Assembly (NCBI GenBank): GCA_020725555.1
Contig: DYEU01000010.1
Span: 74,980 to 138,979 of the forward strand
Source of the DNA: Desulfatibacillum sp.
GTDB lineage: Bacteria > Desulfobacterota > Desulfobacteria > Desulfobacterales > SpSt-501
Direction: 5' to 3'
DNA length: 64,000 nt
Position 1 is the first letter of the stretch. Every line of letters begins with the position of its first letter. A program made the translations under genes and the position numbers. The notes beneath the pieces were generated by a model. It ran no database searches and had not been told where the DNA came from. It saw only the letters and a list, made by a program, of their open reading frames with translations. This document shows, one piece after another, positions 15,657 through 35,806 of the stretch.

Positions 15657-16475
15657 GTGCCGCGTTTCTGCGCCAACCTCAGCTTGCTGTTCACCGAGGT
15701 CGACTTCCTGGACCGCTTCGCCGCGGCGGCCGCGGCGGGCTTTCGGGCGGTCGAATGTCAGTTCCCCTACGCCTGGCCGGCGGAACGCATCGCCGCGGCG
15801 CTTGCGGCGAACGGGCTGCAGATGATCCTGCACAACCTCCCGCCGGGGGAATGGGAGGCCGGGGACCGCGGCCTCGCCTGCATTCCGGGCCGGGAGGCGG
15901 AGTTCCGCGCAGGGCTGGAAACCGCGATCGCCTACGCCCGCAGGCTCGGCTGCCGCCGCCTCAACTGCCTGGCGGGGATCCCTCCGGCCGAGGCGCCCGC
16001 CGCGGCGGTGCACGCCACCTTGGTCGCCAACCTCCGCCATGCCGCCGCGCGCCTGGCGCGCGAGGGAATCCGCCTGCTCATCGAGCCGCTCAACGACCGG
16101 GACGTCCCGGGGTTCTTTCTCCGCCGCACCGCGGAGGCCGTGCGCCTCATCGCGGAGGTGGGCCACCCCAACCTCTTGTTGCAGTACGACGTCTACCACA
16201 TGCAGGTCATGGAGGGAAACCTAATCCGCACCCTGCGGGCGCACCTCGACCGGATCGGCCACATCCAGATCGCCGACCCGCCGGGGCGCAACGAGCCGGG
16301 AACCGGGGAAGTCAATTTCGCCAATCTCTTCCGCGTCTTGGACGAGGCGGGCTACGCGGGCTGGGTCGGCTGCGAGTACCGGCCCTCGCGGGACACGGTC
16401 TCGAGCCTCGGCTGGCTCCGGCACCCGGAGGGGTGCCCGCCTGCCGGGCATACCCCAGGCATTCCGGGAGGATGA
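15657..16475 (+). CDS. hyi: hydroxypyruvate isomerase family protein (xylose-isomerase-like TIM barrel)
   Basis: [20 protein letters not shown] start typical of Hyi/OtnI-like isomerases. GTG start. Confidence 0.75.
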
Positions 16476-16478
16476 AGG

Positions 16479-16877
16479 ATGGGACTGTTGCGCATGGTGG
16501 CCGAATCCGAGGCCACGGGAAAGGTCCGGGAGGTCTACGAGGACATCATGGCCGTCAAGGGCATCGGGTTCGTGCCCAACTTCTGGAAGGCGCTCGCGGT
16601 CTTCCCCGAGCACCTCGAAGCCACCTGGCAGAAGCTGAAAACGGTCATGCGGCCCGGCAGGCTCGATCTGCGGACCAAGGAGATCATCGCGCTCGCCGTC
16701 TCGATCACCAACAACTGCGAGTACTGCATCCATTCCCACACCGCGGCCCTGAAGCGCCTCGGCCTGGACAACGCGGCGATCGGCGAGATCGTGGCCGTGG
16801 TGGACGTCTTTAACGGCACCAACCGCATCGCCAACGCCTACCGGATCGAACCGGACGTCACCCCCGACCCCGAGTGA
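16479..16877 (+). CDS. carboxymuconolactone decarboxylase (AhpD-like) family protein
   Basis: CMD-family core KEIIALAVSITNNCEYCIHSH. Confidence 0.8.
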   Translation: MGLLRMVAESEATGKVREVYEDIMAVKGIGFVPNFWKALAVFPEHLEATWQKLKTVMRPGRLDLRTKEIIALAVSITNNCEYCIHSHTAALKRLGLDNAAIGEIVAVVDVFNGTNRIANAYRIEPDVTPDPE

Positions 16878-16901
16878 GGTCCGGGGGAAAGCGGCCGATT
16901 C

Positions 16902-17642
16902 GTGGAGGCGCTGGCGTTTCTCCGGGGGACGGATTTCGCGGCCGCGGCGGGGGTGGCGGCGCTCGCCGGCTTTCTGCGCGGCTTCGTCGGCGTCGGCTCG
17001 GGCATGCTGATGGCACCCGTGTTCGCCGTGCTCTTCGGCCCGCTGGCGGCGGTGGGGATGGTCGTTTTGCTCGACGCCGCGGCCACGCTGCAACTGCTGC
17101 CCGCGCTGTGGCGGCGCATCGCCTGGCGCGAGGTCCTGCCCATGGCCGCCGCCGCCGCGCTCGCGATGCCCGCGGGGACCCGCCTCTTGCTCGCGGTGGA
17201 ACCGCGCACGATGAGCCGGATCATCGCCGCTCTGGTCCTCGGGTTCGTCCTGATCCTCGCCGCCGGGTGGCGGTGGCGCGGGCCGCGCAACACCGGCGTC
17301 CGTCTCGGGGTCGGGGCGGTGTCGGGGGTTCTGGCCGCCGCCACCGGCATGGGCAACCCGCCCGTGATCGTCTATTTCCTTTCGGGCGCTGGCGAGGCGG
17401 CCGACCACCGGGCGAACTTCACGGGCTACTTCGCGGTCACGCTGGCGACCCTGATCGCGATGATGGCCGCCCGGGGGCTCTTCGAGGAGACGACGCTCCT
17501 TCGCGCAACGGGGCTTTCGCCCTGTTTTCTCCTCGCAACGGGGTTCGGCGGGCGGGTATTCCTTCGCGCCAGCGGGCGACGCTACCGGCAGGTGGCACTC
17601 GGGCTTCTGTTCGCCGCGGGGCTCTACGGGCTGTTGCGCTGA
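16902..17642 (+). CDS. TauE/SafE-family anion (sulfite/sulfonate) exporter
   Basis: 246-aa polytopic protein. GFVGVGSGMLMAPVF motif of the TauE/SafE family. Confidence 0.75.
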   Translation: MEALAFLRGTDFAAAAGVAALAGFLRGFVGVGSGMLMAPVFAVLFGPLAAVGMVVLLDAAATLQLLPALWRRIAWREVLPMAAAAALAMPAGTRLLLAVEPRTMSRIIAALVLGFVLILAAGWRWRGPRNTGVRLGVGAVSGVLAAATGMGNPPVIVYFLSGAGEAADHRANFTGYFAVTLATLIAMMAARGLFEETTLLRATGLSPCFLLATGFGGRVFLRASGRRYRQVALGLLFAAGLYGLLR

Positions 17643-17671
17643 GGGCACGGCCCGGAGCCCCCGTCGCCGGC

Positions 17672-17697
17672 GCAAAAGAAAAGCGCCGCAGCGCTTT
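17672..17697 (-). terminator. intrinsic terminator downstream of the amidohydrolase-fold gene
   Basis: Minus strand AAAGCGC-TGCG-GCGCTTT followed by TCTTTTG. Confidence 0.5.
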
Positions 17698-17749: not shown

Positions 17750-18676
17750 TCAGCGGCCCAGGCGGGCCATGACCTCGCGGACGATCTCGCCCACCAGGTC
17801 CTGCATGCGGCCTCCTTCGGTGGCGGCGGCGGCGGGCGCAGCCGGTTTCAGGCCCAGGAGCTTGGCGGCGTTGTCGTACATGATCTTCTGCTTCACCTCG
17901 GGTTTGAAGGGAAGCTTTTCGTATTTCTGCAGCGCCTCGCGGAAATCGACGAAGGGGTGGGCGCTCGCGAACAGGATCTTGTCGCCGATCATCGTGTTGG
18001 CCGCCTCGACGTAGGCTTCGGCCATGGGCGAGAATTCATACTCGGAAAGGTCGATGTAGACGTTGCGGTTGCGTTGGGCCACGGTGATGGCCTCGTTCAC
18101 CCAGGGGTAGCCGCCGTGGCTGATCACGATCTTGAGTTCCGGGAAGTCGCGCGCCACGAAGTCGATGTACCGCGGGGCCACGTGGTCGATGATGGCGTTG
18201 GGCACCAGGGTCGCCGGACCGGTCGTGAAGATGATCGGGATGTCGAGCTCGCAGCACTTGGCGTAGATGGGGTAATACTTCGCGTCGTTGGCGTAGATCT
18301 GGGCGAGGTAGGGATCGACCGCCGCCCCCCGCATCCCCAGCTCCGTGACCGAGGCCTTGAGCTCGTGGATGGCGCGCATGCCCTTGTGCGGGTCCAGGCC
18401 GATGAAGCCGATGAACTTGTTGGGAAACTGGCGGACGAACTCGATGACGCTGTCGTTGTTGGAACGCGCGCCGTAGGTGGTTTCGCAGTCCCGGCCGGTG
18501 ATGACCGCCCACTCGATGTTGTAGCGGTCGAGGTCGGCGACGACCTCGGGGACCGTCTGGGGCTTCATCTTCGAAAAATCGATCGTTTCACAGAGCCCCT
18601 TGAACATCTTGCTGTTCTGGATGCCGGTGAGCACCTCGGCGGTGTTCGGCCTGAACCGGAAATCGATGATCTTCAT
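17750..18676 (-). CDS. amidohydrolase-fold (Amidohydro_2-like) protein lacking canonical metal ligands, with a C-terminal linker and amphipathic tail
   Basis: Start at ATG 18676 (GGGAGAGGGGA upstream). TIM-barrel amidohydrolase-2 pattern but MKIIDFRFRP, IPIIFTTGP, ISHGG and LFASAHPF. Tail KPAAPAAAATEGGRMQDLVGEIVREVMARLGR. Confidence 0.7.
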   Translation of the reverse strand: MKIIDFRFRPNTAEVLTGIQNSKMFKGLCETIDFSKMKPQTVPEVVADLDRYNIEWAVITGRDCETTYGARSNNDSVIEFVRQFPNKFIGFIGLDPHKGMRAIHELKASVTELGMRGAAVDPYLAQIYANDAKYYPIYAKCCELDIPIIFTTGPATLVPNAIIDHVAPRYIDFVARDFPELKIVISHGGYPWVNEAITVAQRNRNVYIDLSEYEFSPMAEAYVEAANTMIGDKILFASAHPFVDFREALQKYEKLPFKPEVKQKIMYDNAAKLLGLKPAAPAAAATEGGRMQDLVGEIVREVMARLGR

Positions 18677-18745: not shown

Positions 18746-18761
18746 AGCAAACAGGATGCCA
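18746..18761 (-). promoter_or_regulatory. sigma54 (-24/-12) promoter for the amidohydrolase-fold gene
   Basis: Minus strand TGGCATCCTGTTTGCT. GG and GC are exactly 12 nt apart. About 60 nt upstream of ATG 18676. Confidence 0.65.
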
Positions 18762-19004: not shown

Positions 19005-19020
19005 GTTGCATATCTGCATG
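19005..19020. promoter_or_regulatory. 16-bp palindrome copy 1 (candidate enhancer/UAS)
   Basis: GTTGCA-TATC-TGCATG. Confidence 0.55.
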
Positions 19021-19078
19021 GATTAGCAATAACGACCGAGAATATCAAATTTTTTTTGTTTGACTGCCCCGGCGCCAA

Positions 19079-19094
19079 GGTGCAAATATGCAGC
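19079..19094. promoter_or_regulatory. 16-bp palindrome copy 2 (candidate UAS)
   Basis: GGTGCA-AATA-TGCAGC. Confidence 0.55.
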
Positions 19095-19207
19095 AGACGC
19101 CTCTTGGCGCGCCGCCGACGGGCGGCCACAAGACAAAAAATCAAAGAAATTTCAATGGGTATCTGCAAGATCGGCTTCATGCGCGGGAAAGGGCGCGGCA
19201 CAAAGAA

Positions 19208-19223
19208 GCTGCATATTTGCAAC
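19208..19223. promoter_or_regulatory. 16-bp palindrome copy 3 (candidate UAS)
   Basis: GCTGCA-TATT-TGCAAC. A degenerate half-site, AATGGG-TATC-TGCAAG, lies at 19154-19169. Confidence 0.55.
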
Positions 19224-19359: not shown

Positions 19360-19375
19360 TGGCGCGATAGTTGCT
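19360..19375 (+). promoter_or_regulatory. sigma54 (-24/-12) promoter of the BMC shell/core operon
   Basis: TGGCGCGATAGTTGCT with canonical GG-N10-GC spacing. About 110 nt upstream of ATG 19485. Confidence 0.7.
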
Positions 19376-19484
19376 TGAAGCAGGAGGATGGCCGGGCGTC
19401 CGCGCGGCCTTCCCCGTTTCCGGGAGCCGGCCGGGAAGGGCAGGGCGACAGCGGCGGGGACCCCACGGCCGACGGAGGGCCTGC

Positions 19485-20177
19485 ATGGGCAAACTGGTCA
19501 TCTCCATGGCGGACATCGAGGATGCCGTGCGCAAGGGCGAGCGCACCCTGAGGATCCGCTCCGGCGAATGCATCGTGACCCCGGGCGCCCGGGACAGGGC
19601 CCGCGAAATGGGGATCACCCTCCTCGAGGAGGGATCCGCAACCGCCGCCGCGGAGGCGACCGCGGCGGAGACGCCGGCCCTCCCCGAAACGGCGGAGGCG
19701 CTCGTCCGCGAGGTCTGCCGCCACATCGGCGAGCACCTGCCCGCGGGAGTCGAAGCGGGAGAGCTCGAGCGGCTCGTGCGCGGCGCGGTCGCCGCGCGCC
19801 TGGCGGGGCAGCGCGCCGCCGCCGCGGCCGTTTCGCCCGCGGCGCGCGGGGTCTTCTTCGTTCGCGGGTCGCGGCTGCTCGAGGATGCCTCCGGGCCCGT
19901 TCCGGTCGAGGAAAAGGCCATCGTCGCCGAGGCCTTGGGGGGCGGCGAGGAGATGCGGCTCGCCGGCGGGTTCATGGAGTGGGAAAAGGCCTCCTTCCGG
20001 CGCGTCGTCGAATCCGCGGAAATCGCGGTCGTGCTGGAGGGCGAGCTGCGGCTCGCCGTGGGGGAAACGCGGATCGAGGCGCGGCCCGGCGACATGCTCT
20101 ACTTCGCGCCGGGGACCGAGCTGGTCTACGAAGCCGAGGGGCGCGTGCGCCTCGCCTGCGTCAACGGCATCCGGTAA
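19485..20177 (+). CDS. eutQ: EutQ-like cupin protein (BMC-associated; EutQ has acetate kinase activity)
   Basis: N-terminus [46 protein letters not shown] parallels the E. coli EutQ N-terminus (recalled). C-terminal cupin [33 protein letters not shown] 7 nt upstream of ATG 19485. Confidence 0.8.
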
Positions 20178-20197
20178 CCTGAGGAGGCCCGGGCGGC

Positions 20198-21199
20198 GTG
20201 GACATTCTGGAGCGCTGTGTCGAAGCCTGTCGCCGCCACCCCGGGACGGTCGCCTTCCCCGACTGCCTGGACGAGCGGGTGATCGCCGCCGCCGGGCGGC
20301 TCAAGCGCGAAGGGCTTGCCGAGCCCGTTCTCGTCCAGTCCCCCTTCGCCGTGCGCGGGAAACTCCGCGAGGCGCGGGTGCGGGGCACCGGCTTCGTGGT
20401 GGTCGACCCGGGAAGCCCCACGGTTGCGGAAAGGAACGCGCGGCAGTTCAGCGAAATCCGGCGGGAGGCCGGAAAACCCGTGCACGCCGAGGAGGCCGAG
20501 GAGGTCGCGCGCGACCCGCTCACGGCGGCGGCGATGATGGTGCGGCGCGGCGAGGTCGAGGTCGGGGTCGCCGGCAACCTCTCCACCACGGCGGCGGTGC
20601 TGCGCACCGGGCTGCGGGTGCTGCCCCGGAAGCCCGGCATCCGCACCATTTCGAGTTTCTTCCTCATGGTCTCGCCGGACTACGAGCGCCGCTTCATCTT
20701 CGCCGACTGCGCCGTCGTCCCCGAGCCGACGGAGGAGGCGCTCGCCGACATCGCCCTCGCTTCCGCCGACCAGGCGCGCAGCCTCCTGGGCGAGGAGCCG
20801 CGCGTCGCGCTGCTCTCCTTTTCCACCAAGGGCAGCGCCCGGCACCCCCGGGCGGAGATGGTGCGGCGGGCGGTGGAGCTCGTGCGGGAGCGCGCCCCCG
20901 ATTTGAAGGTGGACGGGGAGCTGCAGTTCGACGCCGCCGTGGACCCGGAGGTCGCGGCCCTGAAGGCCCCCGGCAGCGTGCTCGCCGGCCAGGCGAATGT
21001 GGTCATTTTCCCCTCGCTCGAGGCGGGCAACATCGGCTACAAGATGGTGCAACGGCTGGCCGGGTACTCCGCCATCGGCCCCTTCCTTCAGGGGTTCGCC
21101 GGCGGCTGGCACGATCTCTCCCGCGGCTGCAGCGCCGAGGACATTTTTCAGGTGGCCGTGCTGGCGATCTGCATGAAGCGCGGCAACCTGCTCGCATGA
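20198..21199 (+). CDS. pta: phosphate acetyltransferase (PTA_PTB type)
   Basis: 333 aa. [12 protein letters not shown]...[11 protein letters not shown]...[17 protein letters not shown], typical of short Pta. GTG start. Confidence 0.9.
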
Positions 21200-21231
21200 A
21201 CCCGAACGAAACCCTACGCCAGGAGGAATCC

Positions 21232-21510
21232 GTGGACGCACTGGGCATGATCGAAACCAAGGGGCTCGTCGCCCTGATCGAGGCGGCCGACGCCATGGTG
21301 AAGGCCGCGCGGGTCCAGCTCGTCGCCTACAAACAGATCGGGGCGGGCTACGTCACGGCGCTCGTTCGCGGCGACGTCGCCGCCTGCAAGGCGGCCACCG
21401 ACGCCGGGGCGGCGGCCGCGCGCCGCGTGGGCGAGGTGATCGCCGTCCATGTCATCCCGCGCCCCCACGGCGATCTGGACGCCGTCTTTCCGATCCAGGT
21501 GCGGGAATAA
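21232..21510 (+). CDS. BMC-H shell protein (PduA/EutM type)
   Basis: [25 protein letters not shown]...[19 protein letters not shown] 5 nt upstream of GTG 21232. An alternative ATG at 21196 overlaps the pta stop. Confidence 0.9.
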
Positions 21511-21540
21511 CGGGGGGCGCCGGGCAGGCGGGGCTTGGCC

Positions 21541-22878
21541 ATGAACCGGGAGCGCATCCTGCGGCAGATCCGCGATGCCGGCGTCGTCGGCCAGGGCGGG
21601 GCGGGGTTTCCCGCCCACGTCAAGTTCGCCGCCCCGGTGGAGACCGTCATCGCCAACGGCTGCGAGTGCGAGCCGCTGCTCTTCTCCGACCAGGTGCTGA
21701 TGCAGCGCCACGCGGAGGAGATCGTCGAGGCGCTCGAGGCCGTCATGGCCGCGGTCGGTGCGCGCCGCGGGATCATCGCCATCAAGGAAAAATACCGGAC
21801 GGCCGGGGAGCGCTTCGAGCGCCTGCTCGGAGGAAAACCGATCGAGCTTGCGCGCCTTGAGAACTTCTACCCCGCGGGCGACGAGCACGTCCTCGTCCAC
21901 GAACTGCTCGGCCGGGCGATCCCGCCTCTCGGGCTGCCCAAGGATGTCGGCGCCGTCGTCTCCAACGTGGGGACCCTTCATGCCGTGCACCGGGCGATGG
22001 CGGGCCTGCCGGTGACCCACCGCCTGGTCACCGTCACCGGCGAGGTGCGGCGCCCCGCCGTGCTCGAGGTGCCGATCGGCACGCCGGTCGAGGAATGCAT
22101 CGCGGCCTGCGGCGGGCCCGCCGTCGCCGACCCCGTGCTGGTCCTCGGCGGGCCGATGATGGGCCGCTTCGTGGACGGGCCGGAGGCGATGCGCCGGGAG
22201 GTCGTCACCAAGACCACGGGGGGGGTGCTGCTGCTGCCGCGCGGCCACTACCTCCACCGCATGGCCACCCTGTCGGTCCGCGAGATGGAGAAGCAGGCCG
22301 CGGCGGCCTGCATCCAGTGCCGCTACTGCACCGACCTCTGCCCGCGGCACAACATCGGCCACAGCTTCGAGACCCACCGCGTGATGCGGGCCTTCGGCGG
22401 CGGGGTCGCCACGGCGCCGGGAACCCTGCAGGCGTTCCTGTGCAGCGAATGCGGCGTGTGCGAGCTCTTCGCCTGCCCCATGCGGCTTTCGCCGCGGCGG
22501 ATCAACGCCCTGTTCAAGGCCCGCTTCCGCGAGCGGCAGATCGCCTACGAGGGGCCGCGCGAGGTGGTGCCCGCCCAGTCCCTGCTGAACCGGCACCGCA
22601 AGATCCCGGTTTCGCGCCTGGCGATCAAGCTGGACATCCAGAAATACCTCGCCATTCACCCCGCCGAGGGGGAGCGTCTTTCCCCGGCGCAAGTGACGAT
22701 CCCCCTGCAGCAGCATGCGGGGGCCCCGGCCGTCGCCTGCGTGCGACCGGGCGAGCGGGTGGAGGAGGGAGCGGCAATCGGCGAAATCCCCGAGGGCAAG
22801 CTGGGCGCCCGGGTGCACGCCTCCATCGCCGGGGAGGTGATCCGGGTGGACAACGCCGTCACGATCCGGAGGGGCTGA
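21541..22878 (+). CDS. pduS: PduS-like flavin/Fe-S oxidoreductase (RnfC/Nqo1-like)
   Basis: AGVVGQGGAGFPAHVKF nucleotide/flavin motif. Two ferredoxin-type Cys clusters: CIQCRYCTDLCP and CSECGVCELFACP. Confidence 0.85.
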   Translation: MNRERILRQIRDAGVVGQGGAGFPAHVKFAAPVETVIANGCECEPLLFSDQVLMQRHAEEIVEALEAVMAAVGARRGIIAIKEKYRTAGERFERLLGGKPIELARLENFYPAGDEHVLVHELLGRAIPPLGLPKDVGAVVSNVGTLHAVHRAMAGLPVTHRLVTVTGEVRRPAVLEVPIGTPVEECIAACGGPAVADPVLVLGGPMMGRFVDGPEAMRREVVTKTTGGVLLLPRGHYLHRMATLSVREMEKQAAAACIQCRYCTDLCPRHNIGHSFETHRVMRAFGGGVATAPGTLQAFLCSECGVCELFACPMRLSPRRINALFKARFRERQIAYEGPREVVPAQSLLNRHRKIPVSRLAIKLDIQKYLAIHPAEGERLSPAQVTIPLQQHAGAPAVACVRPGERVEEGAAIGEIPEGKLGARVHASIAGEVIRVDNAVTIRRG

Positions 22879-22881
22879 ACC

Positions 22882-23442
22882 GTGGAACCCGAGCTCCATG
22901 CCGTGGGAATGATCGAGTTCAACAGCATCGCCGGGGGCATCGAGGGGGCCGACGCCATGGTGAAGGCCGCGATCGTCGAGCCCTTCCTGATGAAGACCAT
23001 CTGCCCGGGGAAATTCGTCGTCGCCGTGCACGGGGAGGTGGCCGACGTCCAGGCCGCGATCGACGCCGGGCTCGCCCTCGGCAAGGACGCCGTCATCGAT
23101 CACTTCGTCATCCCCCACATCCGCATGGACGTGATCCGCGCGATCGGGGCAAGCCTGACGGACCATCGCGGGGGGGCCGCCCTGGGGGTGATCGAAACCT
23201 TCTCCGCCGCCTCCTGCGTCGTCGCGGCCGATGCGGCGGCCAAAGCCGCCGATGTGGATGTCCTGGACGTGCGGCTCGCCATGGGCCTCGGGGGCAAGGC
23301 GTTCTGCTTGCTCGCCGGGGACGTGGGGGCGGTGGAACGCGCCGTGGAGGCGGGGGCGGAGCGGGCCTCCGCCGAGGGCCTGCTGGTCCGCCGGGTGGTG
23401 ATCCCCGGGGTGGCCGCGGAGGTGCTGCGCCATATCCTCTAG
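22882..23442 (+). CDS. pduT: tandem-domain BMC-T shell protein, PduT-like
   Basis: Two BMC domains ([24 protein letters not shown]; ALGVIETFSAASCVVAADAAAKAA). KTICPGKF matches the Cys-containing Fe-S site motif of Salmonella PduT (recalled). Confidence 0.85.
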   Translation: MEPELHAVGMIEFNSIAGGIEGADAMVKAAIVEPFLMKTICPGKFVVAVHGEVADVQAAIDAGLALGKDAVIDHFVIPHIRMDVIRAIGASLTDHRGGAALGVIETFSAASCVVAADAAAKAADVDVLDVRLAMGLGGKAFCLLAGDVGAVERAVEAGAERASAEGLLVRRVVIPGVAAEVLRHIL

Positions 23443-23494
23443 CCGCGGGGCGCGGCCTGCGAGGCGATTTTTCGTCAAGGAAAGGAAGACACCC

Positions 23495-23839
23495 ATGGCC
23501 GAATCGGAAGCGTTGGGATTCGTCGAAACCCGGGGCCTGGTGGCCGCCATCGAGGCCGCCGACGCGATGGCCAAGGCGGCCCGCGTGCGCATCAAGACCG
23601 TCGGCAACGCCGATGCGGCCCTCATCAGCGTGATCTGCGAGGGCGACATCGCCGCCTGCGCGGCCGCCGTGGACGCGGGGAAAGCCGCCGCGGCCCGCGT
23701 GGGGGACCTGGTCGGCAGCAACCTGATCGCCCGCCCCGACGCGGACACCGCGCGGCTGGTCGAAGAGCGGATCGATGTCCTCATGCCCCCGGCCGGGGAG
23801 GCGGCGAAGGGCACCCCCCGGCCCAAGGGCAGAAAATAA
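23495..23839 (+). CDS. BMC-H shell protein with a ~25-aa basic C-terminal extension
   Basis: [24 protein letters not shown]...[15 protein letters not shown]. Tail [17 protein letters not shown]. Confidence 0.85.
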
Positions 23840-23915
23840 CCCTGCCCGCCCCCCGACGTGGGGGCGGCAACGCCCATGCGGCCCACCGGGGGCCGCCAAG
23901 GAGAGCGAGGAGACC

Positions 23916-24194
23916 ATGATGGACGCACTGGGAATGATCGAAACCAAGGGGTTGACCGCACTGATCGAGGCCTCCGACGCGATGGTCAAGGCCGCGCGCG
24001 TGACCCTCGTCGGCTACGAGCGGATCGGCGGCGGCTACGTGACCGCGCTCGTCCGCGGCGATGTCGCCGCCTGCAAGGCGGCCACCGACGCCGGGGCGGC
24101 CGCGGCGCGCCGCGTCGGGGAAGTGATCGCCGTCCACGTCATCCCGCGGCCGCACGGGGACCTCGAGAAGGTCTTCCCGATCGCCATGAAGTAG
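23916..24194 (+). CDS. BMC-H shell protein (paralogue of 21232..21510)
   Basis: [28 protein letters not shown] 44-aa stretch is identical to the first BMC-H. Confidence 0.9.
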
Positions 24195-24305
24195 CCGCGC
24201 TTGCGGAAGCCCCCCGCCGCGCGATCGGCCGCGGCGGCCCCTGCGCTTCGGGGTCCCCTCTTCCGGGGCACGGGGGGGGACTGGCTTCCAGAGAGGAGAC
24301 CGGCC

Positions 24306-24611
24306 ATGGAACTCGGCAAGGTCATCGGCCAGGTGGTGGCCACGGTGCGCGACCCGGGGCTGCCGAACCTGACCTTTCTGCTCGTGCACATCGTCGACGA
24401 GCACGGCAACGTCACGCTGCCCAGCCAGGTCGCCGCCGACCCGATCGGCGCCGGCGAGGGCGAGATGGTCCTCCTCGTGCGCGGCAGCTCCGCACGGCTC
24501 ATCCTGGAGGGAAAAGCGCCGATCGATCTCAGCGTGATCGGCATCGTCGACCAGATTTCCTCCGGCAAGAAGGCGATCTACGCCAAGTACGCGCCGGAGA
24601 CACGCAAGTAA
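24306..24611 (+). CDS. eutN: BMC-P pentameric vertex protein (EutN/PduN/CcmL family)
   Basis: [19 protein letters not shown]...[20 protein letters not shown]. About 101 aa. Confidence 0.85.
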
Positions 24612-24629
24612 CCGCCCGGGGGAGACTCC

Positions 24630-26051
24630 ATGCAGATCCAGCGTGAGCAAATCGAATCGATCGTCCGCGAAGTCCTCCAGCAGCTCACCGCCCGCATGCC
24701 GCAATCGCCGGCCGCGTCGGCGGAGGGCGACTGGGGGGTGTTCGAGCGGCTCGAGGATGCGGTCTCGGCCGCGGACCGGGCCTTCCGGCGCCTGGACACG
24801 GTCGCCCTGCGCGAGCGCGTCGTCGAGGCGATCCGGCGCGCGGCGCGGGCGAACGCCCGGCGGCTGGCGGAGATGGCCGTGGACGAAACCGGCATGGGAA
24901 GGATCGAGGACAAGGTGAAGAAGATCCTGCTCGTCGCCGACCGCACCCCGGGTCCGGAGATTCTCTTCCCGAGCGCCATGTCCGGGGATGCGGGCTTGAC
25001 GCTCGTCGAAAACGCCCCCTGGGGCGTCATCGCCTCCGTCACCCCCTCCACGAACCCCGCGGCCACGGTCATCAACAACGGGATCAGCATGCTCTCCGGC
25101 GGAAACGCCGTCGTCTTCGCCCCGCACCCGGGCGCCAAGCGGGTCTCCCAGGAGGCGATCCGGATCCTCAACAAGGCGATCCACGAGGAGACGGGCCTCG
25201 TCCACCTGATGACCTGTGTGCGCGAGCCGAGCATCGAAATCGCCCAGAAGCTCTTCACCTACCCCGGGATCCACCTGCTGGTCGTGACCGGCGGGGAGGC
25301 CGTGGTCGAGGCCGCGCGCAAGACGACCAACAAGCGCCTGATCGCCGCCGGCGCCGGAAACCCGCCGGTGGTGGTCGACGAGACCGCGGACCTGAAGCGC
25401 GCGGCGCGCAGCATTTACGAGGGGGCCTCCTTCGACAACAACATCGTCTGCTGCGACGAAAAGGAGATCATCGCCGTCGAGGCCATCGCCGATGCCCTCA
25501 AGCGCGAGCTCGCCGCCTGCGGGGCGGTCGAGATCTCCCGCGAGCAGGCCGAGGCCGTCGCCCGCGCGACGCTCCTCGACTACCCCGGCCCCAAGGCGCG
25601 CCCGAACCCCCGCTGGGTCGGGCGCGACGCCGCCGAGCTCGCCAAGGCGGCCGGTTTCAGCGTCCCCGACGCCTGCCGCCTGCTGTTCGTCGACGTGGGC
25701 CGCGACGTGGACCACGTCTACGCGCGCGTCGAGCAGATGATGCCGCTCGTCCCTCTCCTGCGGGCGGCGGATTTCGAGCAGGCGCTCGAATGGGCGCTCC
25801 TTCTCGAGCGCGACCGCCGGCACACCGCGGCCCTGCACTCGCGCGACATCGACCACATGGACACCATGGCGAAGCGCGTGAACACGAGCCTCTTCGTCAA
25901 GAACGGCCCCTGCATCGCGGGCCTCGGCGCCGGGGGGGAGGGTTGGACCTCGATGACGATCTCGACCCCGACCGGCGAGGGCGTCACCAACGCCCGCACC
26001 TTCGTGCGGCTCAGGCGCTGCACCCTGGTCGGAAGCTTCCGGATCGTCTGA
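24630..26051 (+). CDS. CoA-acylating aldehyde dehydrogenase (PduP/EutE type) with N-terminal encapsulation-peptide-like helix
   Basis: 473 aa. Catalytic Cys region [11 protein letters not shown]-terminus [23 protein letters not shown], then a Pro/Ser/Ala linker, as in PduP. Confidence 0.85.
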
Positions 26052-26973: not shown

Positions 26974-27936
26974 TCAGCGGCCTCCGGCCCGGTAGGCGTC
27001 GGCCGCCGGCTCGGGCTGTTCGGGGACGAGCAGCTCCGGGGCCTCGGTTTGGAGAAAGCGCCGGATCGCGCGTGCCCGCTCCTCGTCAAGCTTGAGCTCG
27101 CCCATGGGAAACTCGAGTCCGAGGTATTCGTACTTGGGTTTTCCCATGCGATGGTAGTCGAGCAGCTCGTAGCGGACGCCGGGCAGCCGGCGGATGTGCT
27201 CCACGATGGCGCGGATCTCCTCCACCGTGTCGTTGAAGCCCGGGATGAGGGGGGTGCGCACCCAGAGGGCGAGCCGCGGGAACTCCTCCCGGATGCGCTG
27301 CAGGTTCTCCAGGATGAGCTCGTTGGAAACGCCGGTGTGGAGCCGGTGTTTGTAGGGGTCCATGCTCTTCACGTCGTAGAGCACGGTGTCGAGCAGCCGG
27401 CACGCCTCCCGCAGGTCCTCCCAGCGGCAGAAGCCGCAGGTCTCCATGGCCGTGTTGAGCCGCCGGCGCCGCGCTTCCCGCAGGAGCGCGATCGCAAAGC
27501 GCGGCTGGTGCATCGGCTCCCCGCCGCTCAGCGTGAGCCCGCCCCCGGAGCGGGTGTAGAAGGCCTGGTCCTCCTCGACCCGGGAGAGCACCTGCTCGAC
27601 GCTCAGCACCTCCCCGTAGACGTTCAGCGCCCGCGACGGGCAGGCCTGGAGGCACAGCAGGCACTCGGTGCAGACGTCGCGGTCGATCGCGATCCGGTTG
27701 TCCTCCCCGGCCTTGAGGGCCCCGGCCGTGCAGACCTCCAGGCAGCGCACGCAGTGCTCGATCCCCAGGCACTTGTTGCGGTTGTAGACGAGCTGGGGGG
27801 CGCCTTTCTGGGACTCGGGGTTGCTGCACCAGCGGCAATGCAGAGGGCAGCCCTTCAGGAACACGACGGTCCGGATGCCCGGACCGTCGTGGACCGAGTA
27901 TTTCTGGATGTTGAAGACGATGCCGGTTTCGGCCAT
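26974..27936 (-). CDS. islB: glycyl-radical enzyme activating enzyme (radical SAM)
   Basis: GCPLHCRWCSNPE (CX3CX2C). Extra ferredoxin-like clusters CLGIEHCVRCLEVC and CTECLLCLQACP. Immediately downstream of the GRE. ATG 27936 preferred. Confidence 0.85.
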   Translation of the reverse strand: MAETGIVFNIQKYSVHDGPGIRTVVFLKGCPLHCRWCSNPESQKGAPQLVYNRNKCLGIEHCVRCLEVCTAGALKAGEDNRIAIDRDVCTECLLCLQACPSRALNVYGEVLSVEQVLSRVEEDQAFYTRSGGGLTLSGGEPMHQPRFAIALLREARRRRLNTAMETCGFCRWEDLREACRLLDTVLYDVKSMDPYKHRLHTGVSNELILENLQRIREEFPRLALWVRTPLIPGFNDTVEEIRAIVEHIRRLPGVRYELLDYHRMGKPKYEYLGLEFPMGELKLDEERARAIRRFLQTEAPELLVPEQPEPAADAYRAGGR

Positions 27937-27969
27937 GCGGCCTCGCAACCCCGCCCCGGGCGGGGCGGG

Positions 27970-30465
27970 TTACAGGGTTTCGTGTTCGGTGCGCGCGATC
28001 AGGTCGTTTTGCAGATCGGGCGAGAGATCCACGAAGTAGGCGCTGTAGCCGGCGATCCGCACGATGAGGCCGCGGTACTTTTCGGGATCGCGCTGCGCGG
28101 CGATCAGCGTCTGCTTGTTGATCACGTTGAACTGCACGTGCCAGAGCTTGAGGTCGCACCAGGTGCGGATGAAGGAGACGAGCTTGCGGGTGCCCTCGTC
28201 CCCGGCCAGGCATTTCGGGGTGAACTTGATGTTGAGCAGCCGCGAGGCGCGCTCCCGGAAATCGTAGTTCTTGCTCGCGAAGTTGGAGAGCAGGACCGCC
28301 GTCGGCCCGTTGCGGTCGGCGCCCTGGGAGGCGGAGGAGCCGTCCGAGAGCGGGGTCCACGCTTTGCGGCCGTTGGGGGTCGCGCCGACCACCTTGCCGA
28401 AGGGGACGTGCGAGGTGAACGGGACGTAGCGCAGGTCGAGGTGCACGCCGAGCTCGCGGGCGTACTTGTGGGTGAACTCGAGCGCGGCGCGGTCGACCGC
28501 CTTGGCGATCCCGTCGGCGTAGGGGTCGTTGTTGCCGTAGCAGGGCGCGTTCATCAGGAGATGGCGCAGGTCCTCGCGGCCCTCGAAGTTGTTGGCGAGC
28601 GCCTCGAGCAGCTCGTCCATCGAGACCTTCTTCTCCTCGAAGACGAACTTCTTGATCGCCGCAAGCGAGTCCACCACCGTGCCGTAGCCGATGAACTCGA
28701 AATAGCCGAGGTCGATCCCGCCGGGGATCTTCGGCTGGTGGAGATCGAGGCAGTGCTGCATGCACAGGTCATGGAGCGCCGAGGCGAGCGGGGCGGCGAA
28801 GTGCTGCGCCCGCAGGCGGATGATGTGGTACTGCTGGATGAAGGCCTGCTTGATGAACTCGGTCTGGTGCGTGAGGTAGGCGTTCCAGAACTCCTCCCAG
28901 CTCTTGAAGCCGCGGGGATCGCCCGTCTGGAGCCCGATCTGCTCCTCGCCGTACTTGCGCATCCTGCCGTTGAGGAGCGTCATCTCGAGGGCGGCGGCGA
29001 AATTGATGTAGGCGCAACCGCTCGTGTAGGTGTCGCGGTTGGGCATGCGCGCTTCGGTGCAGCCCGAGACCGCGTAGTCGTAGGCCTCCTCGAAGGTCGC
29101 CCCCTTGGAGACGTAGAGGGGGATCACCTCCTCGTCGTTGATCAGCTTGGGGAAGCCCGAGCCCTCCTTGATGGTCTCGGCCACCTCCCAGAGGAAGCGC
29201 TCGGGGCTGCGGGTGTGGATGCGCGCCGCGAGGTCGGGGTAGTGCATGGGGAACTCGCGCTTGGAGCGCAGGAACAGGTAGCTCAGCTCGTTGGTCGCGT
29301 CGCGGCCGTCGCGCGTCTGGCCGCCGATCGTGACCGCTTCCCAGTGGGCGTAGCCCTCGTTGAACGCGCCGCCCGTGGGGGAGATGTAGAGATCGATGAA
29401 CTGCGCCATCCCGAGCCACATGCACTCGAGGATCTCGAGCACCCGGTCGTCCGTCAGGCGGCCCTCCTCCTTGTCCTTCTTGTAGAAGGGGTAGAGGTAC
29501 TGGTCCATGCGGCCGTTGGAGATGACCGTGCCGGTCTTCTGCTCGATGCGCGAGAACATCTGGGTGAACCACTGCGCCTGCATGGCCTCGTGGAAGGTCG
29601 TCGCCGGGTTCTCCGGCACCCGCTCGCAGATGCGCGCGATTTCGGCGAGTTCGGCCTTGCGCTGCGGGTCCTTCTCCCGGGCGGCGAGCTCGGCGGCGAG
29701 CCGGGCGTGGCGCTTGGCCCAGAGGACGACCGCGTCGCAGAGGATGACGACCGCCTCGAGGAACGGCTTCTTCTCGGTGTTGTCGAGCGGGCTGAGCGGG
29801 TCGAGGGCCGCCAGCCGCTCCTCGGCCTCCCTGCGGATGCCCTTGAAGCCGCGCTTGAGCACCTTTTCGTAGTCGTGCACCCACTGCAGGCAGGAGCGGA
29901 AGGAGGCCGTCTCGTTCACGATGTAGCGCGAGATGAGGACGTTCTGCGGGTCGTAGGTGTAACGGAGCGTCTCCTCGGGCAGGGCCTTGGCCAGGGACTC
30001 GTGAAAGGTCTTGCCCTTCCAGAAGGGGGCGATCTCCTCGATCACCAGCCGCGCATCGTCGGGATCGATGTCGAAGGGCGACTGCACCCGCTGCGCGAGC
30101 TGCTCCACGGCGAGATCCAGAAAGTCGCCGTCGAGCTCGGGGTAGAGGATCCCGTAGCGGCCCTGCTTGCCCGCCCGGCCGACCAGCAGCTGGTCCTCGT
30201 CGATGTAGACGGTGATGTTTTCGGCGATGTGCTTGAGGGCCTTGGCCCAGCGCAGCATGAGGTGCTGGCCCTCGGTCGCTTTCATGGACTCGGTGAAATA
30301 GCGGGCGCGCTCGATGTCGATCCGCGGCCGTTGCGCCTGGAAGCGCTTCATGATGCGGAAGACCCGCTCCCGGCCCCGCTCGTATTTCTCGGCGCGGCCC
30401 TGCATCTCATCGAAGAGGCGCTGCTCGTGGGGGGAGAGCACTTCACAGCAAGGAACCTGGGACAT
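27970..30465 (-). CDS. islA: glycyl radical enzyme, candidate isethionate sulfite-lyase (C2-sulfonate C-S lyase)
   Basis: 831 aa. Glycyl-radical motif [10 protein letters not shown] (G806). Cys loop SGC469-T-E471. R190/L193/Q194/W375/R679/V681/F683 sit one residue offset from the IslA/IseG sulfonate-pocket residues I recall. AAGGAGGAG RBS. Confidence 0.65.
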
Positions 30466-30559
30466 AACTCCTCCTTCTTGGCAAGCGGAACTCTCGCCCG
30501 CAAGGGACGTTTATGGATGGGTTGGTCTGCAAACCGTCCTGCCTGCGCCCCAGAGAGAA

Positions 30560-30576
30560 AGCAAAGAGCGTGCCTC
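30560..30576 (-). promoter_or_regulatory. sigma54 (-24/-12) promoter of the GRE/activase operon
   Basis: Minus strand GAGGCACGCTCTTTGCT. About 95 nt upstream of ATG 30465. Confidence 0.7.
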
Positions 30577-30681
30577 GAAACCAGGGGATACCCGGCAGGG
30601 TCCGTCGCGGTTGTGTTTTTGCATGAGGAGCGCTGCGGGAAGCTCCCGGGCGGGAGGCGGAAAGCAGGTTTCATTTCGTAA

Positions 30682-30702
30682 AATCATTGCGTTGCATTGA
30701 TT
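30682..30702. promoter_or_regulatory. 21-bp palindrome AATCA-N-TGC-N3-GCA-N-TGATT
   Basis: AATCATTGCGTTGCATTGATT, between the GRE promoter and the 16-bp palindromes. Confidence 0.35.
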
Positions 30703-30803
30703 TCGGCCGCAGCCGGCGGATGACGAGGGAAAAGAAAATTGTTGCAATAAAACAACAGCGGCGATAAAAGCCCGCTTACGTGCCTTGTCTTGGCGCCCGT
30801 GAT

Positions 30804-30819
30804 GTTGCAATAATGCAGC
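30804..30819. promoter_or_regulatory. 16-bp palindrome copy 4 (candidate UAS)
   Basis: GTTGCA-ATAA-TGCAGC. A degenerate copy, GTTGCA-ATAA-AACAAC, lies at 30741-30756. Confidence 0.55.
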
Positions 30820-30823
30820 ATTG

Positions 30824-30839
30824 GCTGCAACTATGCAAC
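30824..30839. promoter_or_regulatory. 16-bp palindrome copy 5 (candidate UAS)
   Basis: GCTGCA-ACTA-TGCAAC, with flanks identical to copy 3. Confidence 0.55.
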
Positions 30840-31015
30840 GTCTTTTTGGCCGGGCCCTTTGACTTTTTGAAACAGGATGGTCTCAAGACGCCATCTGCCC
30901 GGCCGGTCAAGCCAAGATAATTCGATTGAAATGAAAAATCAATAGGTTGAAATTTTGCACCCTCCCGTCTTGATCTGGAGGGTCCGTCGCGTGAACTTGA
31001 GACAGCGTGCTTTTA

Positions 31016-31031
31016 TGGCGCGGTTGTTGCT
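31016..31031 (+). promoter_or_regulatory. sigma54 (-24/-12) promoter of the TRAP (dctPQM) operon
   Basis: TGGCGCGGTTGTTGCT. The -24 and -12 blocks are identical to the BMC operon promoter. About 130 nt upstream of ATG 31164. Confidence 0.65.
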
Positions 31032-31163
31032 AACTCAAGGCCGAAGGCGAGGAGCCGCGGATCAAATCTGCACCCCGGAAAGGAGGGATCGCCCACAGTA
31101 CGATTCGGTTGCCGTTCTGAAGCGTGTCGTTTCCAGCCCCCACCCCATGATGGAGGAAAGAGC

Positions 31164-34399: not shown

Positions 34400-35806
34400 A
34401 TGGAGCCGATCGAACCCTACATCGACCGCATCCTCGACGTCTTAAGCGACGGGATCTACATCTCGGACCGCGAGGGCTACACCCTCAAGGTCAACACGAT
34501 GTACGAGAAGCTGATCGGCCTGAACCGGGAGGACCTGGTCGGCCGGCGCGTCCAGGACCTCGTGCGCGAAGGCGTCTTCGACGTCGTGCTGAACCCGACG
34601 ATCGTGAAGACCGGGCAGCCCGCGACCTCGGTGCAGACGACGAAGAAGGGGCAGAAGCTCATCCTGAACGGGCACCCCATCTTCGACGCCGAGGGGCGGG
34701 TTGCGCTGGTCGTCACCTTCGTGCGCGACGTCACCGTGATGAGCCAGCTCCGCGAGCAGATCGCCGCGCAGAAAAAGCTCCTCGAGCAGTTGCGCACCAA
34801 CGTGCAGTACATCACCGAGGAGACCTTCCAGCGCTTTCCGCTCGCGAGCTTCCGCAGCCGCGAGATGGTGCAGCTGAACAAGCTGATCGAAAAAGTCGCC
34901 GCCACCGACGCGACCGTCCTCATTTTGGGCGAGACCGGGGTGGGCAAGGAGTTCATCGCCCGCGCCATCCACCGCGCCAGCCCCCGGAGCGACCGCACGT
35001 TCTTCAAGCTCGACTGCGCGACCATCCCGGAAAACCTGATCGAATCCGAGCTCTTCGGCTACGCCGCGGGGGCCTTCTCGGGGGCGAGCGTCAAGGGCAA
35101 GCCCGGGCTCTGCGAGATGGCCGACGGCGGCACCCTCTTCCTTGACGAGATCGGCGAGCTACCCCCGGCCATGCAGGTCAAGCTGCTCCGCCTGCTCCAG
35201 GACCAGGAGATCATCCCCGTCGGCTCGACCCGGGTCAGGCGGGTTGACGTGCGCATCCTCGCCGCGACGAACCGCGACCTCGAAAAGGAGATCGAGCAGG
35301 GCCGCTTCCGCAGCGACCTCTACTTCCGCCTGCGCGTCGCCGTGCTCCACGTCCCGCCCCTGCGCGAGCGCCGCGAGGACATCCTGCCGCTCGCCGAGCA
35401 TTTCCTGCGCAAGTACGCCGCCAAGTACCGCAAGGAGCTCCGCTTCGCGCCGGAGGTCGAAAAGGCCTTTGTCGCCCATCGCTGGCCGGGGAACATCCGC
35501 GAGCTCGAAAACCTGATCGAGAGCGTCGTCGTGACCTGCGACCGCCCGGTCGTGGAGCTCGCCGACCTCAACTCCTGCATGTGGAACGAGGGCGCCGGCC
35601 GCACGCGAAGCCTCTACGAAACCCTGGACACCCGGGGGAAATCGCTCAAGGAGATCCTGCAGGAGATCGAGGGGGAGATCCTCGCCGGCGCACTCGCGGC
35701 CCACGGGTCGATGGCGCGGGCCGCCGCCGCCCTGCGGGTGGACCGCTCGACCGTCTTCCGCAAGCTGCGGCGCGCGGCGAAGAAGCCGCCGGCGGGGCCG
35801 CAATGA
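34400..35806 (+). CDS. PAS-domain sigma54-dependent transcriptional activator (NtrC/Fis family)
   Basis: PAS-like N-terminus. AAA+ core with Walker A GETGVGKE and sigma54-contact loop ESELFGYAAGAFSGA. C-terminal Fis-type HTH GSMARAAAALRVDRSTVFRKLRR. Confidence 0.9.
   Translation: MEPIEPYIDRILDVLSDGIYISDREGYTLKVNTMYEKLIGLNREDLVGRRVQDLVREGVFDVVLNPTIVKTGQPATSVQTTKKGQKLILNGHPIFDAEGRVALVVTFVRDVTVMSQLREQIAAQKKLLEQLRTNVQYITEETFQRFPLASFRSREMVQLNKLIEKVAATDATVLILGETGVGKEFIARAIHRASPRSDRTFFKLDCATIPENLIESELFGYAAGAFSGASVKGKPGLCEMADGGTLFLDEIGELPPAMQVKLLRLLQDQEIIPVGSTRVRRVDVRILAATNRDLEKEIEQGRFRSDLYFRLRVAVLHVPPLRERREDILPLAEHFLRKYAAKYRKELRFAPEVEKAFVAHRWPGNIRELENLIESVVVTCDRPVVELADLNSCMWNEGAGRTRSLYETLDTRGKSLKEILQEIEGEILAGALAAHGSMARAAAALRVDRSTVFRKLRRAAKKPPAGPQ

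Follow-up and report, generated by a model that had tools for sequence, protein, structure and literature searches.

Among the described bacterial microcompartments (BMCs), the closest to the locus reported here belong to the type named GRMguf or taurine/isethionate BMC (PMC13450708; bioRxiv 2024.07.15.603600), for which an amidohydrolase has already been catalogued. In Table 1 of Burrichter et al. (2021), HMPREF0179_00649, the last gene of the Bilophila wadsworthia IslAB-BMC cluster, is listed as a 'hypothetical protein, predicted amidohydrolase' and is not discussed. Sutter et al. (2021) give PF04909 (Amidohydro_2) for GRMguf and MIC3 in their Supplementary Data 6, and their Supplementary Data 5 (ep_hmms.hmm) holds a 32-position encapsulation-peptide hidden Markov model (HMM), 'HMM04909amidhy_1_grmguf', with the Firmicutes-type consensus ..QsIIEnVIaq... 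In the papers that could be searched, we found no published function for this amidohydrolase, and no description of its ligand loss or of its occurrence outside BMC loci. Here we analysed a stretch of 64,000 nucleotides from Desulfatibacillum sp. (contig DYEU01000010.1 of assembly GCA_020725555.1, positions 74,980 to 138,979; hereafter the window), which carries a further member of this catalogued but functionally orphan family next to the genes of a BMC. An earlier note on this DNA knew of no BMC type described with such a component, a claim that is wrong, given the two papers of 2021.

As judged from its gene content, the locus is a GRMguf. It encodes an isethionate sulfite-lyase (IslA)-type glycyl radical enzyme (GRE) with its activase IslB, BMC-H, BMC-T and BMC-P shell proteins, a CoA-acylating aldehyde dehydrogenase (AldDH), Pta, a PduS-like protein next to a PduT-like BMC-T, and the PF04909 amidohydrolase, which is the component list of both published tables. 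PF00936 was found four times, one of the matches being a tandem-domain BMC-T, together with PF03319 and the radical SAM activase, and the top PDB matches of IslA are the isethionate sulfite-lyases 5YMR (1424 bits) and 7KQ3 (1356 bits). The best overall explanation of our results, which we put forward tentatively, is that the amidohydrolase is an encapsulated, metal-free accessory of IslAB that possibly splits an adduct of the two GRE products.

The link to the microcompartment was traced through the C-terminal end of the protein. Three scans of 185,579 species genomes yielded 230 loci, including 85 distinct complete orthologues at 50% identity or more. A tail is present in 61 of the 85, and 60 of these have a BMC close by or in the same genome. 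Shell genes lie in the flank of 51 and Pta/EutQ at the flank edge of 5; a BMC operon is located about 10 kb upstream in 2, and in the other 2 the BMC is on another contig of the same metagenome-assembled genome. The remaining 24 orthologues are devoid of a helical or PLPF-type tail, and none of them has BMC genes within 10 kb; 22 end at most five residues past the fold, and two, from Desulfosporosinus paludis and Desulfitobacterium, retain a linker stub of 10-13 residues. Three types of tails can be distinguished, matching three shell lineages: DLVxDIVREV in Desulfobacterota, IIESVIKELAKKG in Firmicutes, Nitrospiraceae and Selenomonadales, and a non-helical [LV]P[LM]PFxPF..R in Bilophila-like Desulfovibrionaceae. 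Because tail-less forms sit in several unrelated clades, the gain or loss of the tail was repeated. According to these comparisons, where shell genes exist the protein appears to have acquired a linker and a putative C-terminal targeting tail. Given this co-occurrence, the tail very probably serves as an encapsulation peptide, by which the protein would join IslA and AldDH in the BMC lumen. The earlier note had proposed that the protein is a BMC cargo, to be checked by whether orthologues co-occur with shell genes and keep the tail. Over the 85 orthologues tail presence does track BMC presence, which supports that proposal.

Two observations on the variation of these ends are worth recording. 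In BMC loci of Bilophila-like Desulfovibrionaceae (L059:10001-10939, L196 and L222), the amidohydrolase ends in a Pro-rich, non-helical segment, [IVL]P[LM]PF[QMI]P[FY].P..R, which was detected in no other open reading frame (ORF) of the three loci and might target the protein in another way than the helix. The stubs in the non-BMC loci of D. paludis (L174) and Desulfitobacterium sp. Sab5 (L169), NLPEVTALPL and NLLDLAPSTPVKG, look like the first part of the linker found in relatives with a BMC, as though truncation of the tail had accompanied loss of the BMC.

In the window protein, the fold is followed, as the earlier note had described, by a Pro/Ala-rich linker and a tail of 19 residues. Among the 120 closest homologues, which are 75-99% identical, the tail is kept in 112, with the consensus DLVxDIVREVMxRL, and the linker varies in length and sequence. 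The window tail is of the Desulfobacterota type (DLVxEIVREVMARL), and its residues follow an i/i+1/i+4/i+5 hydrophobic pattern. The AlphaFold2 model shows a helix at residues 290-307 preceded by a disordered stretch at 282-289 with a predicted local distance difference test score (pLDDT) below 50. The core of the tail had been described as identical to the N-terminal helix of the AldDH. The five residues IVREV are indeed shared, but the identity goes no further: when a tail HMM was run against all six-frame ORFs of the window, the AldDH N-terminus (IVREVLQQL) was the best non-self match at an E-value of 0.06 only. The EutQ-like protein contains an internal segment (19692-19739, plus strand), located behind an Ala-rich stretch, that resembles cargo tails; its hydrophobic moment, 0.58, is the highest of those tested and is reached by 1.3% of shuffles.

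The protein has the Amidohydro_2 TIM-barrel layout and has lost the four metal ligands of its family. It matches the PF04909 profile over residues 34-276 (E=3e-42, 145.8 bits for a cut-off of 26.4) and no NCBIfam model. Its AlphaFold2 model (pLDDT 80, predicted TM score 0.80) comprises eight beta/alpha units, and Foldseek ranks 3IRS first, then LigJ, gamma-resorcylate and dihydroxybenzoate decarboxylases, LigW and ACMSD, with a probability of 1.00 for 3IRS, LigJ, gamma-resorcylate decarboxylase and ACMSD. The columns of the metal ligands H, H, H and D are occupied by R7 and R9 (strand beta1), T151 (beta5) and A239 (beta8), and only H187 (beta6) is kept. In HMMER alignments, T151 pairs with the beta5 His in 3NUR and LigW, and A239 with the beta8 Asp in these two and in 3S4T. 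H187 aligns with the beta6 His of the IGHWG/VGHMG motifs, and a His is found there in 115 of 119 representatives. The family assignment and the exchange of H,H,H,D for R,R,T,A had been made by eye in the earlier note. The former was confirmed by profile match and structure comparison, and the exchange and the retention of H187 by sequence alignments.

This exchange extends well beyond the window. We found 5723 relatives among 1.84 billion cluster representatives, and counted the residues at window positions 5/7/9/151/187/239 in a MAFFT alignment of 119 full-length representatives. The signature D-R-R-T-H-A occurs in 32 sequences, D-R-R-T-H-G/S in 14 and the canonical D-H-H-H-H-D in 12. As evidenced by this alignment, the ligand switch is a covarying trait that defines a large clade and is not particular to the window gene.

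The protein is under strong constraint. Its median identity over 52 loci, 84.7%, is the highest among the enzymes of the locus, the values being 81.2% for AldDH, 78.4% for IslA, 75.2% for Pta and 68.2% for the PduS-like protein. Across 87 GRE-linked orthologues, invariance reaches at least 97% at 76 positions. Of these, 37 are polar, and 17 of the 37 map to C-terminal ends of predicted strands, on seven strands out of eight (p about 1e-4). The conserved polar active-site face comprises R7, R9, R62, D63, E65, D95, H97, K98, D121, H187, E212, E214 and H240. Since the invariant polar residues cluster at the C-terminal ends of the strands, the protein is likely to have a working active or binding site rather than to be a decaying pseudoenzyme. 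The 87 GRE-linked orthologues also share, without exception, a Cys-Cys pair, C141-C142 (18251-18256, minus strand), in the helix that follows strand 4.

The genetic neighbourhoods of the orthologues point to the sulfonate-cleaving GREs as partners. Nearly all of 70 loci with the protein adjoin IslA/IslB, a BMC operon or both, and it was absent from choline, propanediol and other GRE-associated microcompartment loci. The protein also accompanies IslAB clusters without a BMC, in Nitratidesulfovibrio, Oleidesulfovibrio, Desulfovibrio, Maridesulfovibrio, Desulfitobacterium and D. paludis. Relatives at 53-58% identity adjoin the 2,3-dihydroxypropane-1-sulfonate (DHPS) sulfolyase HpsG (matches to 6LON of 1804 and 1610 bits), and relatives at 42-47% identity adjoin IslA-like GREs. 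In five loci (L061, L062, L064, L066 and L068), tail-less relatives at 42-58% identity are encoded directly after the GRE/activase pair, and in L062 and L068 the GRE is of the HpsG type by its PDB match (6LON). Because of these two loci, the protein goes with the DHPS C-S lyase too, and not with isethionate cleavage alone. This distribution shows it to be a conserved accessory of IslA/IseG and HpsG, the GREs that cleave the C-S bond of sulfonates, whether or not a BMC is present.

Since the protein occurs with both sulfite-releasing GREs with and without a BMC, and would enter the BMC where there is one, its target should be a product of the GRE or something that the GRE binds. We lean towards a metal-independent enzyme acting on a small anion, in which the Arg cluster would replace the metal; binding of a sulfonate or sulfite by the Arg pair, as suggested in the earlier note, is plausible. 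Acetaldehyde and sulfite are known to form 1-hydroxyethane sulfonate, an unreactive adduct (PMC7145950, PMC10297206). IslA itself holds the sulfonate of its substrate by two Arg and one Gln (PMC8473560, PMC13450708), and product release by direct elimination has been proposed for it (PMC8473560). Speculatively, and with low confidence, the substrate could be the carbonyl-bisulfite adduct into which the two products of the GRE combine by themselves. IslA yields acetaldehyde and sulfite, which combine spontaneously into 1-hydroxyethanesulfonate; the Arg cluster would bind the sulfonate of the adduct, and H187/H240 or an acidic residue would deprotonate its hydroxyl. The amidohydrolase would in this manner speed up dissociation of the adduct inside the compartment, the freed acetaldehyde going to AldDH and the sulfite possibly leaving for TauE or Dsr. 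It is doubtful, but conceivable, that a lyase dedicated to carbonyl-bisulfite adducts (alpha-hydroxysulfonates), the first of its kind, is found in this protein, with an Arg dyad in place of the metal; it may also carry the tail-less IslA into the BMC. If true, an adduct lyase would solve the product trapping inherent to sulfonate C-S lyases.

Several points weigh against the reading of the protein as an encapsulated accessory of IslAB that splits an adduct. Ketone-bisulfite adducts, such as that of hydroxyacetone, the HpsG product, are much weaker than aldehyde adducts, so that an adduct lyase would be less needed there. One tailed orthologue (L044) has no detectable BMC in its flank, and the hydrophobic moment of the window tail (Eisenberg moment 0.41, reached by 19% of shuffles) is not significant by itself and does not single the tail out. 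Many IslA-like loci lack the protein within 10 kb, for instance in Niallia, Clostridium tyrobutyricum and Acidobacteriota, and other members of the Arg-Arg clade are found in unrelated contexts, including TctABC, ABC transporters and a hydantoinase BMC. IslA turns over in vitro without the amidohydrolase, in a coupled alcohol dehydrogenase assay (Peck 2019), and the G20 mutant set of Peck et al. does not include its gene. The transposon-directed insertion sequencing (TraDIS) gene of Bilophila considered below, WCP94_002051, was called an orthologue from annotation and gene order only.

The distant members of the clade were considered as support for a link to sulfonates and set aside, as their contexts show no consistent link. 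Their neighbours include TctABC with an acetolactate synthase-like thiamine pyrophosphate enzyme, an F420-type luciferase-like oxidoreductase, an ABC transporter for which a match to the YeiH family is weak, and the hydantoinase BMC, none of them at NCBIfam cut-offs. The last of these (L234:670-8703), another type of BMC locus, encodes two tandem Arg-Arg-type amidohydrolases (46% and 37% identity), two BMC-H proteins, hydantoinases A and B and a BMC-P.

The rival explanations differ in what they make of the tail and of the active-site face. As a serious alternative, the protein might be an adaptor that binds IslA, or HpsG elsewhere, its tail bringing the tail-less GRE into the BMC and catalysis being secondary. 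Piggy-back encapsulation is established for PduCDE via the PduD tail, and both the wide co-evolution of the protein with the GRE and a conservation equal to that of the main shell protein would fit such a role. Moreover, compared with their counterparts from genomes without a BMC, IslA and IslB show neither terminal extensions nor insertions, yet IslAB co-fractionates with BMCs in Bilophila (PMC8667426). We nevertheless consider a mere adaptor unlikely, as it leaves unexplained both the tail-less copies beside the GRE in BMC-free organisms and the clustering of conserved residues on the active-site face of the barrel. That face might instead serve a non-catalytic protein that binds sulfite or sulfonate and buffers or hands over sulfite or substrate beside the GRE. 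The exchange of the metal ligands for a cationic cluster (R7, R9, R62 and K98), the linkage to both sulfite-releasing GREs and the proximity of TauE in close relatives speak for this possibility. It is improbable in view of the invariant acid/base residues D63, E65, D95, H97, D121, H187, E212 and H240, which exceed the needs of simple binding, and of the very high abundance that stoichiometric buffering would demand.

The family name and the frequent proximity of TRAP transporter genes suggest a different role, that of an upstream hydrolase freeing isethionate or DHPS from an ester or amide conjugate ahead of C-S cleavage. This role is highly improbable, given that all four metal ligands are gone and that the putative encapsulation tail would put the protein in the lumen, past uptake. 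In addition, the TRAP binding protein takes free isethionate (PMC11668362), the amidohydrolase is found in strains that grow on free isethionate, and the taurine-conjugate hydrolase of Bilophila belongs to another family, PF07969. The bile salt hydrolases of Bilophila that are called amidohydrolases are likewise unrelated, being secreted PF07969 metalloenzymes of 101 kDa. Finally, loss of the catalytic ligands, a terminal helix like those of other cargo and very high conservation would be compatible with a pseudoenzyme acting as a purely structural scaffold that nucleates the BMC core, an option raised in the earlier note. It now appears extremely unlikely: the 24 orthologues in which neither a helical nor a PLPF-type tail is present, encoded in BMC-free loci, keep the same invariant active-site residues, and the ligand-less state is common to a large clade mostly unrelated to BMCs, 3IRS included.

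Data from the mouse gut bear on the importance of the gene. In the TraDIS study of Sayavedra et al. (2025), the log fold changes of the Bilophila gene were 0/-15.7 in the small intestine, -6.6/-7.5 in the colon and -6.4/-5.6 in stool. They thus lie between -5.6 and -15.7 in five of six gut conditions, as for the neighbouring AldDH, PduT-like and PduS-like genes. Polar effects are unlikely, if the gene is co-transcribed with the cluster, since it is the last one. The exact sequence of the Bilophila-like orthologue L059 belongs to Candidatus Avidesulfovibrio and not to B. wadsworthia, which is why the orthology of WCP94_002051 rests on annotation and gene order.

The gene is predicted to be co-regulated with the BMC operon (Table 1). 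In the 64 kb, TGGCAC-N5-TTGCW has four matches with one mismatch, all inside the two divergent control regions of the locus. TGCA-N4-TGCA palindromes are confined to the same two regions within the window, with five sites and eight strand-wise matches where 0.5 are expected, and are putative binding sites of a sigma54 activator. The islA/dctP intergenic region (30466-31163) mirrors that between the amidohydrolase gene and the BMC operon, with two divergent sigma54 promoters and two palindromes; this points to a single regulon in which the PAS-sigma54 activator controls four transcription units. The enhancer-binding protein encoded nearby, this activator, is the probable regulator of all four promoters. 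In 36 of the 85 distinct orthologues, the 300 bp upstream contain a strict sigma54 motif, compared with 0.7% of random 300-bp windows, and most orthologues without one follow islB or AldDH in an operon. The hairpin 3' of the stop codon, which is absent from the list of a consensus terminator scan, would tentatively make the gene a monocistronic unit. The features predicted from the sequence are those of a sigma54 transcription unit: a spaced GG/GC promoter, upstream palindromes and a nearby enhancer-binding protein. A sigma54 promoter of its own, a palindrome-bearing enhancer region shared with the BMC operon and co-regulation with that operon had all been postulated. The promoter and its conservation in orthologues, together with the three palindromes of the divergent region, agree with all three.

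Table 1. Predicted features of the amidohydrolase gene and the surrounding isethionate microcompartment locus (positions in the window)
Feature	Position	Strand	Basis or remarks
Terminator-like hairpin AAAGCGC-TGCG-GCGCTTT, then TCTTTT	17670-17697	-	3' of stop codon; by eye
Amidohydrolase gene	17750-18676	-	308 aa; start MKIIDFRFRP; GGGAGAGGGG ribosome-binding site before start
Encapsulation-peptide-like helix RMQDLVGEIVREVMARLGR, residues 290-308 (19 aa)	17753-17809	-	homologues, AlphaFold2 model, BMC co-occurrence
Pro/Ala-rich linker KPAAPAAAATEGG, residues 277-289	17810-17848	-	length and sequence variable among orthologues
Amidohydro_2 TIM-barrel domain, residues 1-276	17849-18676	-	profile, AlphaFold2 model, alignments
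Sigma54 -24/-12 promoter TGGCATcctgtTTGCT of the amidohydrolase gene	18746-18761	-	about 70 nt upstream of start codon
TGCA-N4-TGCA palindromes	19007-19018, 19081-19092, 19210-19221		in the divergent control region; together spanning 19007-19221
Sigma54 promoter TGGCGCgatagTTGCT of the divergent BMC operon	19360-19375	+	motif scan
BMC operon	19482-26051	+	EutQ-like, Pta, BMC-H, PduS/RnfC-like NADH dehydrogenase (flavoprotein), PduT-like BMC-T, two BMC-H, BMC-P, CoA-acylating AldDH
AldDH N-terminal encapsulation-peptide-like helix	24639-24686	+	IVREV common with amidohydrolase tail
islB (activase) and islA (isethionate sulfite-lyase GRE)	26974-30465	-	IslB 26974-27948, IslA 27970-30465
Sigma54 promoter facing islA	30560-30575		motif scan
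TGCA-N4-TGCA palindromes	30806 and 30826		between islA and dctP
Sigma54 promoter facing dctP	31016-31031		motif scan
PAS/sigma54-interaction/helix-turn-helix enhancer-binding protein	34400-35806	+	domain matches

The start codon occupies the same position in the orthologues, by sequence comparison. Beyond islA, the locus continues with genes for a TRAP transporter, the PAS-sigma54 activator, acetate kinase and a class III aminotransferase. On the other side, genes for a TauE sulfite exporter, a carboxymuconolactone-decarboxylase-family protein and a xylose-isomerase-like TIM-barrel protein (15657-17642, plus strand) converge on the amidohydrolase gene, and TauE holds this position in about 15 related loci.

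The isethionate/taurine BMC drives H2S production in Bilophila and many sulfate reducers, and the amidohydrolase is its sole core component without a proposed role, yet the most conserved enzyme of the locus. Its annotated counterpart in Bilophila matters for gut colonization as much as the shell and AldDH genes. Its function, once known, would complete the pathway and might explain how acetaldehyde and sulfite avoid mutual trapping, or how IslA becomes encapsulated. It would also be the first function in a large clade of the amidohydrolase superfamily that does without metal and to which an orphan crystal structure already belongs. The three types of tails, gained or lost alongside the BMC, offer a clean natural comparison for the study of encapsulation signals.

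Compared with known systems, the window protein shares its fold, Pfam family and beta6 His with ACMSD, gamma-resorcylate decarboxylase, LigW and LigJ of the cog2159 subgroup. The HxH, His and Asp metal ligands of these enzymes are replaced in the window protein, and their metal-based mechanism therefore cannot apply to it. A precedent for metal-free catalysis by this fold is LigI, the 2-pyrone-4,6-dicarboxylate lactonase, which acts on an anionic substrate without a metal. LigI belongs to another subgroup, cog3618, and keeps His/Asp residues; it was not among the PDB matches of the amidohydrolase. The best PDB match by sequence (E=6e-34, or 2e-87 with a profile) and by structure is BB4693 of Bordetella bronchiseptica (3IRS, 3K4W), on which we found nothing relevant in the literature. 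BB4693 has the same signature, with the start LKIIDFRLRP, Thr at beta5, SHG at beta6 and Ala at beta8. It differs in its identity of about 28-35%, in having no tail, and in having neither a known GRE or BMC context nor an assigned function. The tail resembles the encapsulation peptides of PduP, PduD and the type II AldDH N-terminus in being a terminal helix of about 18 residues behind a variable linker. Unlike these, it is C-terminal and sits on an amidohydrolase-fold protein, and its targeting role is proposed from co-occurrence only. The closest counterparts are the GRMguf amidohydrolases (HMPREF0179_00649 / WCP94_002051), which belong to the same Pfam family and lie, as in the window, with IslAB, AldDH, Pta, PduS-like, PduT-like and shell genes. 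Their published encapsulation-peptide HMM is of the Firmicutes type, whereas the window tail is of the Desulfobacterota type and the Bilophila-like relatives carry the third, non-helical type.

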